Assembly (NCBI RefSeq): GCF_045037415.1 | Contig: NZ_CP173438.1 | DNA length: 64,000 nucleotides | Reading direction: 5' to 3' (one strand) | DNA from: Escherichia coli | GTDB taxonomy: Bacteria; Pseudomonadota; Gammaproteobacteria; Enterobacterales; Enterobacteriaceae | Part shown: piece after piece, positions 22,037-63,675 of the stretch | Numbering within the stretch: position 1 is the first letter of the stretch | Layout of the letters: every line of letters begins with the position of its first letter | Made by a program: the position numbers and the translations under genes | Notes under the pieces: generated by a model | What the model was told of the DNA's origin: nothing | What the model saw: only the letters and a program-made list of their open reading frames with translations | The model's database searches: none

Positions 22037-23203
22037 TCAAACTGATGGACGTAAACGAACGCGTAACCAGCTATATCCAATTACCGCCGAAGAAATTGAA
22101 CCGACAAGGATACCTAATTTTGCCCAGTTAATCAGTTCTGGATCTACGCTACCAAATGCCAGGCTGGCAATAAAGATAGACATAGTAAAACCGATACCGC
22201 ACAGGATACCAACCGCCATAATTTGCTGGTAAGTCGTTCCCTCTGGCAGATGTGCCAGTTTCAAACGCAGCGCCAACCAGCAGAACAGACTAATACCCAG
22301 TGGCTTGCCAATCAGCAAACCAGCGATGATCCCTAATGGCAGAATGGAGGTCAAACCTTCCAGCGTGACACCTTGCAGTGAAACGCCAGCATTAGCAAAT
22401 GCAAACAGCGGCAAAATCAGATACGCCACCCATGGATGCAAAACATGCTCCAGACGTTTAGCCGGAGAGCGCCCATGCTTCTCTTTTAACGGAATAAAGA
22501 AGCCGACAATGACGCCAGCCAGCGTTGCATGGACACCTGATTTCAACACCGCTGTCCACAGCACCACGCCAACCAGAATATAAACGCCCGTGCGGCGTAC
22601 ACCACACAGATTCAATACCGCGAGTACCGCAATTGCTACAGCCGCGACGCCAAGAGAGGCCATCGATAAGTCATTAGTGTAGAACAATGCGATGATAATG
22701 ATGGCCCCAAGATCGTCGATAATAGCCAGAGCCATCAAAAAGATCTTCAGCGCTAACGGAACACGACTTCCCAACAGCGCCAACACACCAAGTGCAAAGG
22801 CAATGTCAGTCGCCGCCGGGATTGCCCAGCCTTCGCGAGTGATAGGATCGGCATAGTTAAAAGCCAGATAGAGCAATGCCGGGACAATCATCCCGCCGAT
22901 TGCGGCAATAACAGGAAATGCCGCCTGGCGCAGACTGGCCAGCGAACCTTGCATCAGCTCGCGTTTAACTTCCAGACCAACCAACAGGAAAAATACCGCC
23001 ATCAGAGCGTCATTGATCCATAGCAGCATGTTCTTGTTGATCTCAAGTGTCCCAACCCGGAGCTGAACCGGCGTCTCAAGAAAGTCGTGATACCATCCAC
23101 TGGTTGCACCGCTGTTGGCCATAATCATCGCTAATACAGCGGCAATAATGAGAATAATGCCTCCCGAGGCATCACTGCTAAAGAATCGATGCAGATGTTT
23201 CAC
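22037..23203 (-). CDS. nhaA: Na+/H+ antiporter NhaA, 388 aa
   Basis: [42 protein letters not shown]... full length. Confidence 0.96.
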
Positions 23204-23437
23204 TTTTTATTTCTCTTCAGGTGAATAGATCGTTTTCACGATTTTACCCCGCACGAATCATCGTTAAAATCAGATTATAGTGTAGGAATAGCTCGCTTTT
23301 TACGATCTATTAAAAGAATTGCGCCATCAGCGAGAGATGAGTTTTTGATGCCCGAAAGCGGCGGCTGATGACCTTAAACCCCATTAATCATAGTCTAATG
23401 TCAAGATTTCTGAAGAAATTATTCGGAAAAGTAATAA

Positions 23438-38110: not shown

Positions 38111-38129
38111 TTGAGATAATGAATAGATG

Positions 38130-39416
38130 TTACTGATGATTCATCATCAATTTACGCAACGCAGCAAAATCGGCGGGCAGGTTATGCGAAAGCAAGGGTA
38201 AATCAGCACGTTCTGCCAGCTCTTTTGGCAGATCCAACGTTTCACCGAGAATCGCTTCCACGCTCTCTTTAAATTTTGCCGGATGCGCGGTGCCGAGGAA
38301 CAAGCCATATTCGCCTGGATTCAACTGGTCACGCAGCGCACGATAAGCTACGGCAGCGTGCGGCTCCGAGGTATAGCCCAGTTCTTTTAACTCACGCATT
38401 GTCTGTTGCGTGGTTTCATCATCCACGGCTGCATACCCCAGCTCTTTCAGTTGCCAGATTTTGCGGCGGAACAACTCTTCCACACGCGGCCAGTTGTTTG
38501 GCTGGCTAACATCCATCGCATTGGATAACGTCGCCTGAGTCGCTTTGGGTGACCACTGACCGCCGTGCAGGAAACGTGGCACGGTATCATTCACGTTGGT
38601 CGCAGCAATAAAACGCTTCACCGGCAGGCCAAGAGATTTCGCCAGCAGGCCCGCTGTCAAATCGCCGAAGTTACCGCTCGGCACCGAGACAACCAGCTGG
38701 TTGCGCGCTTCCTGCGGCAACTGCGCCACGGCTTCAAAGTAGTAGCAAATCTGCGCCAGCAAACGGCTGATGTTAATGGAGTTAGCAGAGTTTAGCCCCA
38801 GCGCCACTTTCAGCTCTTCATCATCAAACGCCTGCTTCACCAGCGCCTGACAGGCATCGAAATCGCCGTCGATGGCAACAGTTTCGATATTGCCGCCCAA
38901 TGTACAGAACAGTTTTTCTTGCAGTGGACTGATTTTGCCTCGTGGATAGAGGATAACCACTTTCACATTCGGTAAACCGTAGAAAGCATGAGCCACTGCC
39001 GCTCCAGTATCACCGGATGTCGCGGTCAGAATGGTCACTGGCTTATCGCCCGCAATATGGGTCAGCATTTGTGCCATAAAGCGACCGCCGAAATCTTTAA
39101 ATGCCAGCGTTGGCCCGTGGAACAATTCCAGACAACCGACATCGCTTTCAACATTGGCGACCGGAGCCGGGAAGGCAAACGCCGCACGTACGCGCTCTTC
39201 CAGGATTTCCTGCGGGATTTCATCACCAATAAACGCCGAGAGGATCTTCGCACTGCGGGTGACAAAATCCAGCTTCAGCATCTCATCAATTTCAGTCAGG
39301 CTGAATTCCGGCAGGTCGTGCGGAAAAAACAGCCCCTGATTTTTGCCTAACCCCTGGGTTACGGCTTGCGCAAAGCTGACCTGCTCATTGTGATCTTTCA
39401 GATTGTAGAGTTTCAT
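38130..39416 (-). CDS. thrC: Threonine synthase, 428 aa
   Basis: MKLYNLKDHNEQVSFAQAVTQGLGKNQGLFFPHDLPEF... Confidence 0.97.
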   Translation of the reverse strand: MKLYNLKDHNEQVSFAQAVTQGLGKNQGLFFPHDLPEFSLTEIDEMLKLDFVTRSAKILSAFIGDEIPQEILEERVRAAFAFPAPVANVESDVGCLELFHGPTLAFKDFGGRFMAQMLTHIAGDKPVTILTATSGDTGAAVAHAFYGLPNVKVVILYPRGKISPLQEKLFCTLGGNIETVAIDGDFDACQALVKQAFDDEELKVALGLNSANSINISRLLAQICYYFEAVAQLPQEARNQLVVSVPSGNFGDLTAGLLAKSLGLPVKRFIAATNVNDTVPRFLHGGQWSPKATQATLSNAMDVSQPNNWPRVEELFRRKIWQLKELGYAAVDDETTQQTMRELKELGYTSEPHAAVAYRALRDQLNPGEYGLFLGTAHPAKFKESVEAILGETLDLPKELAERADLPLLSHNLPADFAALRKLMMNHQ

Positions 39417-60440: not shown

Positions 60441-61457
60441 ATGTCCACATTACGCCTGCTCATCTCTGACTCTTACGACCCGTGGTTTAACCTGGCGGTA
60501 GAGGAGTGTATTTTTCGCCAGATGCCCGCCACGCAGCGCGTTCTGTTTCTCTGGCGCAATGCCGACACGGTAGTGATTGGTCGTGCGCAGAACCCGTGGA
60601 AAGAGTGTAATACCCGGCGGATGGAAGAAGATAACGTCCGCCTGGCGCGGCGCAGTAGCGGTGGCGGCGCGGTGTTCCACGATCTCGGCAATACCTGTTT
60701 TACCTTTATGGCTGGCAAGCCGGAGTACGATAAAACTATCTCCACGTCGATTGTGCTCAATGCGCTGAACGCGCTTGGCGTCAGCGCCGAAGCTTCCGGG
60801 CGTAACGATCTGGTGGTGAAAACCGCCGAAGGCGACCGCAAAGTCTCAGGCTCGGCCTATCGCGAAACCAAAGATCGTGGCTTCCACCACGGCACTTTGC
60901 TGCTCAATGCCGACCTTAGCCGCCTGGCAAACTATCTCAATCCGGATAAAAAGAAACTGGCGGCGAAAGGCATTACCTCAGTGCGTTCCCGCGTGACCAA
61001 TCTGACCGAATTGCTACCGGGGATCACCCATGAGCAGGTTTGCGAGGCCATAACCGAGGCCTTTTTCGCCCATTATGGCGAGCGCGTGGAAGCGGAAATC
61101 ATCTCCCCGGACAAAACGCCAGACTTGCCAAACTTCGCCGAAACCTTTGCCCGCCAGAGTAGCTGGGAATGGAACTTCGGTCAGGCTCCGGCATTCTCGC
61201 ATCTGCTGGATGAACGCTTTACCTGGGGCGGCGTGGAACTGCATTTCGACGTTGAAAAAGGCCATATCACCCGCGCCCAGGTGTTTACCGACAGTCTCAA
61301 CCCCGCGCCGCTGGAAGCCCTCGCCGGGCGACTGCAAGGCTGTCTGTACCGCGCGGATATGCTGCAACAGGAGTGCGAAGCGCTGCTGGTTGACTTCCAG
61401 GAACAGGAAAAAGAGCTACGGGAGTTGTCGGCATGGATGGCAGGGGCGGTGCGGTAG
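60441..61457 (+). CDS. lplA: Lipoate-protein ligase A, 338 aa
   Basis: [57 protein letters not shown]... Confidence 0.95.
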
Positions 61458-62789
61458 TTACCCACCCATGCGGGTAACTTTCTCTTCGATTTGCCGGATT
61501 TTTTCCGGCATTTCTTGCGCAATGTGGCGAAACGCCTCGCTGATACGCGGATCTCTGGCGACCGTTTGCCAGAACTGCTGCGCCAGCGGGATCGCCGTTA
61601 ACCATGCGCTTTTACTGATGTTAAGATCAAACTTCACCTCAATGGCAGCATCACGCAGCATTCCGGCGCTGTTTGGCGCATAGGCCATCGGCAGCATGTC
61701 GTAGACGGGTGTCAGCGCAAATGGTGGTTCAGATAAATAAAATGATAAATTGCCTGCGTGCATATCGCTGTTGGCGATAAGTCGCCCAAACGCCCAGATC
61801 ACTTCTGTTTGCGCCACGCTCTGGTGAGTGACAAGTTGTTGCTCACACAAATGCCGCATTGCCTCCGGCCACGATCCCGGAGAAGAGATAAACTCACTTT
61901 GCACCGCCTCCAGCGACACAATGGGCAAGCGACCATCGTTACCTTTGCAGTCAAAGCGTTCCGCTTCCAGGAATACCTGCCTGTTACTTGTTACAAGCAC
62001 CGTTGACTCGATGGCGTGGATCCCGCCGTCACGCAGGATTTGCGCGGCAATAGATTCAGCAATTAGCAGGTCCCCCCAACGTTGGCTGACTGCGGTTTGC
62101 TGTGGCACGGTGAATTTCACCAACACATGTTTATTGCCTGACGGCGTTTGTGCATAGCAGGTAAATTTTGGCTGCTCGCCGCCCGCAGAAGAACCCACAA
62201 TTTCTCCAGCCAGAGCATCGCTTGCCAACTGTTCGTAACGGGTGAGTTTTTGATCCAAAGGAATTTCCGCAGGGCGTTGTGCAGTAATCCATCGCTGATA
62301 ATTCCCCTCCCCGACCAACCAACCGCCAGTATATTCACCGTTAAATACGGTCAGGGCGTAGAGCACATCTTCTTCCTGCCAGAGACGTATATCATCAGTC
62401 AGATTCAGTTGCGCGGCTAACTTTCTGCCCCACGCGCGCCCTAAAAAGCCCTGCGGTCGGAGATCGGTCAAATACCAGGGCAAACCATCAAACCACTGTT
62501 CGTCGCCATCTGCGCCTGTTACCAGACAACTTCCCTGTGGCCAGCACAACCGGATGTCGGCGAATTTATGCGCCTTTCCGGCATCGTCCACCCGCCAGAC
62601 GGGAATACGCTCAATTCCGCGATAAGGACGCAGCAGTACATATCGCGTTGCCCGTGCTTTACCAAAGCGAATCACCCGATTTTCTCTGGCAACAAGGCGT
62701 GAGAACGTCGCCTGACTGATTGCCAGACGCTGGCGCAATTCCGGGGCAGAACGCGGCCCTTGCAGTAAAAGATCGGTCAGTTCGCTCAT
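61458..62789 (-). CDS. yjjJ: HipA-family Ser/Thr kinase with N-terminal helix-turn-helix (orphan HipA-like toxin homologue), 443 aa
   Basis: N-terminal HTH (ELRQRLAISQATFSRLV) fused to a HipA-like kinase domain; same size and position as K-12 yjjJ. Confidence 0.85.
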   Translation of the reverse strand: MSELTDLLLQGPRSAPELRQRLAISQATFSRLVARENRVIRFGKARATRYVLLRPYRGIERIPVWRVDDAGKAHKFADIRLCWPQGSCLVTGADGDEQWFDGLPWYLTDLRPQGFLGRAWGRKLAAQLNLTDDIRLWQEEDVLYALTVFNGEYTGGWLVGEGNYQRWITAQRPAEIPLDQKLTRYEQLASDALAGEIVGSSAGGEQPKFTCYAQTPSGNKHVLVKFTVPQQTAVSQRWGDLLIAESIAAQILRDGGIHAIESTVLVTSNRQVFLEAERFDCKGNDGRLPIVSLEAVQSEFISSPGSWPEAMRHLCEQQLVTHQSVAQTEVIWAFGRLIANSDMHAGNLSFYLSEPPFALTPVYDMLPMAYAPNSAGMLRDAAIEVKFDLNISKSAWLTAIPLAQQFWQTVARDPRISEAFRHIAQEMPEKIRQIEEKVTRMGG

Positions 62790-62792
62790 TAA

Positions 62793-62825
62793 TGAATAGA
62801 TTCGTGAATAGATACTTGAATAGAT
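62793..62825. repeat. Three perfect direct repeats of TGAATAGAT at 12-bp spacing, immediately 5' of the yjjJ start codon
   Basis: tgaatagat at 62793-62801, 62805-62813 and 62817-62825, read directly from the sequence. Confidence 0.85.
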
Positions 62826-62892
62826 TTATTAACATATTTCACTGAAAAGTATAGCGAAAATATTCAAGCTGGAGAGATAAATGAATAAATAC

Positions 62893-62932
62893 TAAAAAGC
62901 CGGAGCAGTCTCCCACTCCGGCTTCACACGAC
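62893..62932 (-). terminator. Putative intrinsic terminator downstream of deoD
   Basis: Minus strand: agccggag-tgggagactg-ctccggct followed by ttttagtattt. Confidence 0.55.
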
Positions 62933-62955
62933 AATCGCCTTTCAGCAAAACACAA

Positions 62956-63675
62956 TTACTCTTTATCGCCCAGCAGAACGGATTCCAGCGCGATTTTGAT
63001 CATGTCGTTGAAGGTGGTCTGACGCTCAGCGGCAGTGGTCTGCTCGTGAGTGCGGATGTGGTCAGACACGGTGCAGATGGTCAGGGCTTTCGCGCCAAAT
63101 TCTGCAGCGACGCCGTAGATACCCGCCGCTTCCATTTCCACGCCGAGGATGCCGTATTTTTCCATCACGTCGAACATTTCGCCGTCCGGAGAGTAGAACA
63201 GGTCAGCGGAGAACAGGTTACCAACGCGAGCATCAACGCCCAGTGCTTTTGCCGCGTCTACCGCGTTACGCACCATGTCGAAGTCAGCGATAGCGGCAAA
63301 GTCATGGTCTTTAAAACGGATGCGGTTAACTTTGGAATCGGTGCAGGCACCCATACCGATAACGACGTCGCGCAGTTTTACGTGCGGCAGAACAGCGCCA
63401 CAGGAACCCACGCGGATAATTTTCTTCACGCCGAAATCAGTGATCAGTTCTTTGGTGTAGATGGAGCAGGACGGGATACCCATACCGTGGCCCATTACGG
63501 AAATTTTGCGGCCTTTGTAAGTACCAGTGAAGCCCAGCATACCGCGAACGTTGTTCACTTCACGGGCATCTTCAAGGAAAGTTTCAGCAATATACTTCGC
63601 ACGCAGCGGGTCGCCTGGCATCAAAACTACGTCAGCAAAATCGCCCATTTCTGCATTAATGTGTGGAGTAGCCAT
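62956..63675 (-). CDS. deoD: Purine nucleoside phosphorylase DeoD-type, 239 aa
   Basis: [69 protein letters not shown]...; the ORF-track start at 63732 is an upstream extension. Confidence 0.96.

Follow-up and report, generated by a model that had tools for sequence, protein, structure and literature searches.

An unpartnered HipA-family kinase gene, hipH (yjjJ), with a candidate repeat operator in its promoter in Escherichia coli

The hipH (yjjJ) gene was analyzed in a stretch of Escherichia coli DNA of 64,000 nucleotides (contig NZ_CP173438.1, assembly GCF_045037415.1), referred to here as the window. It is a single unbroken open reading frame (ORF) of 443 aa plus stop on the minus strand (61458..62789). 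Our analysis makes it probable that hipH encodes a functional, chromosomally inherited kinase of the HipH clade, and that this toxin, which has no partner gene, is tolerated through low expression controlled in cis. The protein matches the NCBIfam equivalog for YjjJ (NF007297, 'HipA family toxin YjjJ') over residues 1-442 with 672 bits against a cutoff of 401 (E 3.5e-202), and Pfam HipA_C over residues 200-429 (E 6.9e-21). Its K-12 counterpart is b4385, now named hipH (P39410), an orthologue with the same locus, length, architecture, monocistronic organization, and promoter repeats. The two alleles are 97.2% identical at the nucleotide level, with 37 nucleotide and 11 amino acid differences (432 of 443 residues identical), and none of the 11 substitutions hits a conserved or catalytic position. 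At codon 211 (62155-62157, minus strand), beside the Gly-rich loop, the window allele and the family consensus have C211 and K-12 has Y211, so the laboratory reference protein is the deviant at this residue. Given the 97.5% identity to the K-12 protein, the window allele would share its Ser/Thr kinase activity and growth inhibition.

The conservation of the catalytic residues was counted by aligning 81 full-length HipH proteins, taken from the loci analyzed here and reaching down to 36% identity. In the Gly-rich loop (G199-SSAGGEQPK-F209; 62163..62195, minus strand), which carries the autophosphorylation serines S200 and S201, residues S201, G204, E205, Q206, P207, and K208 are each found in 81 of 81 proteins and S200 in 80. 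The ATP-binding lysine K225 (62115..62117, minus strand) aligns to HipA K181. The catalytic loop D342-M-H344-A-G-N347 (61749..61766, minus strand) corresponds in the BLASTP alignment to HipA D309-G-H311-A-K-N314, and the Mg2+-binding aspartate of Y363-D364 (61698..61703, minus strand) corresponds to HipA D332. The catalytic segment reads LIANSDMHAGNLSF...LTPVYDML in HipH and LIGATDGHAKNFSV...LTPFYDII in K-12 HipA. Seven residues with HipA counterparts are present in all 81 proteins (S201-S150, K208-K157, K225-K181, D342-D309, H344-H311, N347-N314, and D364-D332, HipH first), and the only systematic difference in the catalytic segment is HipA K313, which is G346 in every HipH protein. The first-pass annotation had made its kinase interpretation depend on the catalytic-loop residues. 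On careful alignment none of them is lost (D342, H344, and N347 in 81/81), and the interpretation survives. As read from this alignment, the catalytic machinery of HipH is intact and invariant across the family, and the retention of every catalytic residue down to 36% identity suggests that selection preserves the kinase chemistry.

The AlphaFold2 model of HipH, built from a 30-sequence alignment, has a predicted local distance difference test (pLDDT) score of 89.8 and a predicted template modeling (pTM) score of 0.88, with residues 200-204 of the Gly-rich loop as the sole segment of low pLDDT. The protein folds into an ArsR/MarR-type winged helix (residues 1-55), a beta unit (residues 61-100), and a HipA/HipT-like kinase core (residues ~105-443). 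The N-terminal winged helix-turn-helix (HTH; 62625..62789, minus strand) is weakly supported by sequence in the window protein (MarR_2, E 0.055) and reaches 1e-5 in homologues. Its predicted recognition helix (residues 26-35; 62685..62714, minus strand) carries the motif S25-Q26-x-T28-x-S30-R31, in which T28 and R31 are invariant across 34 N-termini and S25, Q26, and S30 are at least 90% conserved. The winged helix is followed by the beta unit (62490..62609, minus strand), which precedes the kinase core and has four strands (residues 61-67, 73-82, 87-92, and 97-100) with a pLDDT of ~92. Structure and profile searches gave no convincing structural or sequence match to this unit. It may correspond to HipA N-subdomain-1/HipS, but an hhalign alignment of HipH with HipA covers residues 245-368 only and leaves it unaligned.

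In Foldseek searches with the whole chain, the best matches were full-length ones to HipA of Shewanella and E. coli (E ~1e-11 to 1e-10, TM ~0.55), followed by HipT of Legionella and E. coli O127 and by CtkA. Structure and literature searches found no solved structure of HipH. HipH and K-12 HipA share the kinase fold, the catalytic D/H/N/D residues, the ATP-binding lysine, and a P-loop autophosphorylation serine at ~13% identity. HipH has no hipB gene beside it and no Pfam HipA N-domain (couple_hipA/HipA_N) match at E<=10, and therefore lacks both an HipA_N-type subdomain-1 match and the adjacent hipB of HipA sensu stricto (clade I). The core of HipT, from the HipBST system of E. coli O127 and Legionella, aligns with that of HipH, and two adjacent Gly-loop serines are autophosphorylated in both, whereas HipBST consists of three genes (the split kinase HipT, the antitoxin HipS, and HipB) and HipH of one. 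The equivalog match, the kinase core, the fused HTH, the monocistronic organization, and the two Gly-loop serines place the window protein in HipH clade X. The equivalog and HipA_C matches, the model, and the fold matches thus bear out the earlier description of a HipA-family kinase fused to its own N-terminal HTH. This description and its interpretation are already known from the published account of YjjJ/HipH, in which Gerdes et al. 2021 described YjjJ as a HipA homologue that is encoded monocistronically and has its N-terminal HTH at residues 15-34, renamed it HipH, and assigned 101 members to HipH clade X (PMC8262856).

The toxicity and phosphoproteomics experiments proposed in the first-pass annotation also exist, and its label of a less-studied variant is now only partly true, as the toxicity, substrates, and antidotes have been published. 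Gratani et al. 2022 reported that YjjJ overexpression is lethal, with filamentation, DNA degradation, and RecA induction, and does not raise antibiotic tolerance (PMC9948734). By stable isotope labeling (SILAC) phosphoproteomics and in vitro, HipH phosphorylates RpmE at S69 and CsrA at S56/59, and it autophosphorylates at S200, S201, and S217 (PMC9948734). These substrates differ from GltX, the substrate of HipA. A kinase-dead mutant substituted at 342 and 364 loses most of the toxicity, and native yjjJ expression is very low (PMC9948734). Liao et al. 2024 reported that HipH localizes to the nucleoid, that cyclic di-GMP (c-di-GMP) binds HipH with a dissociation constant (KD) of 7.6 uM and suppresses its DNase activity, assayed as plasmid cleavage in vitro, and that c-di-GMP induces hipH in a manner requiring the native promoter region (PMC11452175). 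In that study the HTH was required for toxicity, and HipH with residues 340-372 deleted was still toxic, in conflict with Gratani et al. (PMC11452175).

These reports allow the possibility that HipH is primarily a genotoxic DNase with the kinase fold incidental to toxicity, the HTH delivering the protein to DNA and c-di-GMP acting as the true antitoxin. The toxicity of the 340-372 deletion, the need for the HTH, the nucleoid localization, and the c-di-GMP-inhibited plasmid cleavage (PMC11452175) all fit this explanation, as do the degraded DNA and the induced RecA that Gratani et al. also observed (PMC9948734). On the other hand, only HipA_C and the winged helix are detectable in HipH, with no nuclease domain or motif, all kinase catalytic residues are invariant in 81/81 proteins, the 342 and 364 point mutants lose toxicity (PMC9948734), and nuclease contamination of the His-tag preparation may account for the cleavage. 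We consider this explanation unlikely.

A second possibility is that the N-terminal HTH is a cis-acting antitoxin, bending back onto the kinase to hold it inactive within one polypeptide. This idea was raised by Gerdes et al. 2021 (PMC8262856), and the HTH is indeed fused where a separate HipB would be; the pTM of 0.88 may also imply a defined arrangement of the domains. However, full-length HipH is toxic and has kinase activity both in vivo and in vitro (PMC9948734), deletion of the HTH abolishes rather than unleashes toxicity (PMC11452175), and the recognition helix shows the residue conservation of a DNA-reading surface and varies together with the repeats upstream of the gene, described below. 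A cis-acting antitoxin is therefore very unlikely in our view.

No separate antitoxin gene accompanies hipH either. The convergent lplA (60441..61457, plus strand) abuts hipH with a gap of 0 nt between stop codons, and deoD (62956..63675, minus strand, the same strand as hipH) lies upstream beyond a gap of 166 nt, so that neither gap has room for a gene. This layout agrees with the earlier statement that no hipB-like gene flanks hipH. A canonical type II toxin-antitoxin (TA) operon pairs a toxin with a cognate antitoxin gene, and no such gene is found on either side of hipH; the name 'type II TA system ... toxin' that NCBI gives to the product denotes the family it belongs to and does not mean that a pair exists.

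Regarding an antidote, whose identification had been proposed, two have been reported, c-di-GMP (PMC11452175) and HipB in trans (PMC9948734). HipB of the unlinked hipBA locus could then be the natural antitoxin of HipH, in a split, trans-acting type II pair. Overexpressed HipB rescues cells from YjjJ toxicity in two studies, including PMC9948734, and kinase-dead YjjJ activates HipA, which is consistent with sequestration of HipB (PMC9948734). Against this, HipB had no inhibitory effect on HipH activity in vitro (PMC11452175), and hipH occupies one site from Escherichia to Serratia and also occurs in Betaproteobacteria, a vertical pattern unlike that of hipBA. We give such a split pair a small chance.

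The promoter region of hipH contains a candidate control element. Three tandem direct repeats ATCTATTCA (62817-62825, 62805-62813, and 62793-62801, minus strand) recur with a 12-nt period and form a candidate operator, and this proximal array (62793..62825) ends 3 nt before the ATG. A distal fourth repeat, ATTTATTCA (62882..62890, minus strand), lies 65 nt upstream of the first proximal copy; it has one mismatch in the window strain and is a perfect ATCTATTCA in K-12 and E. albertii. The window contains 5 exact copies of ATCTATTCA against 0.51 expected, 3 of them upstream of hipH. The other two are single copies on the minus strand, one (23222-23230) located 19 nt upstream of a 388-aa ORF (22037-23203, minus strand), presumably nhaA by size and map position, and one (38120-38128) immediately 3' of a 428-aa ORF (38130-39416, minus strand), probably thrC. 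A regulon comprising these single copies was not adopted, as their frequency is compatible with chance. The literature searched for the repeat sequence returned unrelated primers and shRNAs only, and that searched for the gene made no mention of the repeats, a HipH operator, or autoregulation; the yjjJ promoter is one of those targeted in a Reg-Seq study.

The array is conserved together with hipH. In Salmonella, Citrobacter, and Erwinia the layout is the same, a set of three copies that stops 0-5 nt short of the ATG and a distal copy, and the intervening sequence is unalignable. Across 80 loci the array recurs with 0 to ~25 nt between the last repeat and the ATG, and the distal repeat is spaced 63-66 nt from the first proximal one, mostly 64-66. 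In 24 aligned Enterobacterales promoters the invariant columns are the repeat cores, with the distal core A-T-x-x-A-T-T-C-A. A motif-free measure gave the same picture: in the 70 nt upstream of the start at 82 loci, self-identity peaked at lag 12 with 0.443, whereas shuffled sequences averaged 0.294 and reached 0.308 at most, and an echo of 0.380 appeared at lag 24. The lag-12 peak was 0.476 in Enterobacterales and 0.425 in other lineages, and control regions had no peak. Three loci of Enterobacter cancerogenus and Pantoea (L023, L025, and L048) have no adjacent deoD, and their distal repeat is still 65-66 nt upstream of the array. Since the array is kept in hipH loci without deoD, it travels with hipH and not with deoD. 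At these three loci the terminator hairpin of the upstream gene sits between the distal repeat and the proximal array.

By phylogenetic footprinting we inferred a sigma-70 promoter (62826..62854, minus strand), with a -35-like CTATAC (62849-62854), a 17-nt spacer, and a -10-like TAATAA (62826-62831) that abuts repeat 1. The footprint of the 24 Enterobacterales genomes is CTTTAC-N17-TATAAA followed at once by the repeats, and TATAAT or TATACT abuts repeat 1 in many Betaproteobacteria. On this promoter the three repeats would span about -5 to +31, which would be repressor territory. The inferred leader (62790-62812, minus strand) consists almost entirely of repeats and has no Shine-Dalgarno sequence: the anti-Shine-Dalgarno duplex is predicted at +0.1 kcal/mol for hipH, whereas deoD and lplA have -5.4 and -5.6, and a 4-mer Shine-Dalgarno core occurs in only 4% of the 80 related loci.

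The sequence of the repeats shifts with that of the recognition helix. Rheinheimera/Alishewanella have the helix DRSTxTR and the repeats ATCGATGCA/ATTGATGCA, and Comamonas has the helix SRATLAR and the repeats ATCGTTTCA/ATCGACACA, with the 12-nt period kept in both. These two lineages with a deviant recognition helix are the lineages with deviant upstream repeats. Together, this covariation and the co-travel of the array with hipH make HipH's own winged helix the most economical reader of the repeats. We therefore suggest, tentatively and with a little less than an even chance, that the winged helix of HipH binds the candidate repeat operator and autorepresses the gene, and that c-di-GMP releases the HTH from DNA. 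As in our main reading, hipH expression is probably kept very low by its own cis elements rather than by a linked antitoxin, namely a weak promoter, an operator-like array of three 12-nt direct repeats (about -5 to +31), the distal copy located 65 nt upstream, and the missing Shine-Dalgarno sequence. In the suggested mechanism, the winged helix would sit on the repeats overlapping its own -10/+1 region, and in Enterobacterales on the distal copy too. Binding of c-di-GMP to HipH would free the HTH from DNA, and this single release step would derepress the promoter and lower the DNA-directed toxicity together, which would explain why c-di-GMP was reported both to induce hipH through the native promoter and to suppress toxicity. 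In this reading, the repeat array would functionally replace the missing HipB/operator pair.

Several points weigh against our reading of HipH and its autorepression. The usual targets of ArsR/MarR winged helices are palindromes, bound by dimers, and not direct repeats of 12 bp. The ArsR/SmtB and MarR repressors compared here (NolR, CzrA, BigR, HlyU, and SqrR) are small homodimers with palindromic operators and sensor sites, whereas HipH carries a single winged helix on a kinase of 390 residues and has direct repeats in tandem as candidate sites. The hipBA system differs as well, using a Cro-type HTH instead of a fused ArsR/MarR winged helix, and palindromic operators (TATCC-N8-GGATA) instead of direct repeats with a 12-nt period. 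The covariation of helix and repeats amounts to two independent lineage switches only. A consensus promoter scan of 61200-63100 found no sigma-70 site in E. coli. We attribute this result to the degenerate -35 of E. coli (CTATAC, against CTTTAC/TTGACA in E. albertii and other genera), which suggests that the hipH promoter may have been weakened in E. coli. The array also persists in the 75% of E. coli without hipH, so its maintenance is not strictly HipH-dependent, although the time since the loss may be short. Although the operator-like array co-varies with the fused HTH, chromatin immunoprecipitation with exonuclease treatment (ChIP-exo) of myc-tagged YjjJ in K-12 by Gao et al. 2021 gave zero binding sites (PMC8464067), in a setting where native expression is very low in exponential phase. 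Finally, the published studies disagree on whether the kinase activity is the toxic activity.

Some of these points would be explained if the repeats were not an operator of HipH, but the site of another regulator, such as a c-di-GMP-responsive factor, or an element of the mRNA leader that acts in translation or stability in place of a Shine-Dalgarno sequence. The negative ChIP-exo result (PMC8464067), the retention of the repeats in E. coli without hipH, and the way they fill an inferred 5' untranslated region without a Shine-Dalgarno sequence are in line with such a role. It is harder to reconcile with the other observations. The array goes with hipH in unrelated contexts and in two proteobacterial classes, so a separate regulator would have to co-travel, and the repeat sequence shifts where the HipH helix shifts. 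A fixed translational element would not be expected at a distance to the ATG that varies from 0 to ~25 nt, the distal copy is upstream of the inferred promoter and hence outside the mRNA, and no Rfam family was matched, the scan of the intergenic regions giving only a noise match to a human long noncoding RNA model. We regard a role other than HipH operator as somewhat unlikely, and retain autorepression as our tentative reading.

The distribution of hipH is consistent with long residence at one site. Among the candidates scored, 5,622 proteins are homologous at E<=1e-5. In a synteny scan with one genome per species, deoD is directly upstream of hipH in most Enterobacterales loci (Escherichia, Citrobacter, Leclercia, Kosakonia, Buttiauxella, Cedecea, Erwinia, Yersinia, Serratia, and Ewingella), and in Salmonella, Citrobacter, and Erwinia hipH is monocistronic and directly downstream of deoD. 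Across these Enterobacterales genera the identity of HipH drops from 94% to 44%, against 98-86% for DeoD. The dN/dS of hipH is 0.12 against K-12 and 0.17 against E. albertii. Outside Enterobacterales (Rheinheimera and many Betaproteobacteria, 36-42% identity) the neighbors of hipH differ. Thus hipH has stood beside deoD since before the Enterobacterales diverged, and it is under purifying selection, fairly fast-evolving yet constrained and vertically inherited, unlike a typical mobile TA module. A mobile, patchy, horizontally transferred distribution was not seen, the patchiness in E. coli (25%) being a replacement at the same site, and no family among the anti-phage defense models of PADLOC was matched at E<=0.01.

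Within E. coli, yjjJ is present in 1,347 of 5,426 complete genomes. In the ~75% that lack it, the lplA-deoD interval is ~1 kb shorter and contains instead an 87-aa ORF on the opposite strand. The replaced segment spans from the lplA stop to the hipH ATG (for example in E. coli O157:H7, L002 1259-1713; also in L003). The 87-aa ORF encodes a Pfam HTH_3 (Xre/Cro) domain, has a good ribosome-binding site, and never occurs together with hipH at the lplA-deoD locus. Some strains carry it as a pseudogene, its homologues, many of them truncated, occur only in Escherichia/Shigella, and its only distant relatives are Cro/CI-type regulators of temperate phages. Its 'plasmid' matches (>95% identity) are megabase-sized records, presumably chromosomal. 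We asked whether this ORF could be a displaced HipB, and rejected the idea, as BLASTP finds no similarity to HipB or HipH and its relatives are of phage type; it is not the missing antitoxin of HipH. The claim that hipH has no HipB-type partner thus stands for genomes with hipH, with the qualification that a small Xre HTH gene fills the slot in hipH-less E. coli.

The promoter repeats and the hipH ATG are retained in hipH-less genomes (L002 1552-1585 and 1639-1647), and the array is found as a single copy per genome in 5,422 of 5,426 E. coli, the hipH-less ones included. The hipH and Xre alleles differ strongly in the stretch that separates the distal from the proximal repeats, and in the Xre allele the retained hipH ATG opens a 27-codon ORF antisense to the Xre gene. 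In E. coli WB61 (L001 3501-3692), hipH was lost independently by a deletion that left the first 146 nt, annotated as a truncated 'transcriptional regulator' pseudogene. Because hipH is replaced in three quarters of E. coli, it is dispensable in this species.

The remaining features concern the boundaries of the gene. Over the 3.4 kb around hipH, the window matches several E. coli chromosomes with 100% identity, and their annotation reads ytjB-lplA-yjjJ-deoD-deoB; the deoD synteny is conserved across Enterobacterales. A strong intrinsic terminator of deoD (62896..62925, minus strand; inverted repeat I4), with a 13-bp stem containing 7 GC pairs followed by a T-run, splits the deo operon from hipH. 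The ~17 codons at the 3' end of hipH harbor two terminator-like hairpins of lplA (61456-61479 and 61492-61510, plus strand). For hipH itself, the minus strand beyond the stop codon showed no terminator-like site. Given the abutting stop codons, the position of the lplA hairpins inside hipH, and this missing terminator, the convergent lplA and hipH transcripts may overlap.

The ancient deoD-hipH synteny and the purifying selection argue for HipH as a resident kinase with a regulatory role rather than as a selfish TA element. What our analysis adds to the published work is the candidate control element, the old residence of hipH in the deo neighborhood, and the Xre swap in most E. coli. The HTH and repeat variants of Rheinheimera and Comamonas provide a natural specificity-swap control for the proposed recognition. 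The repeat array bears both on the way an unpartnered toxin is restrained and on the induction of hipH by c-di-GMP.

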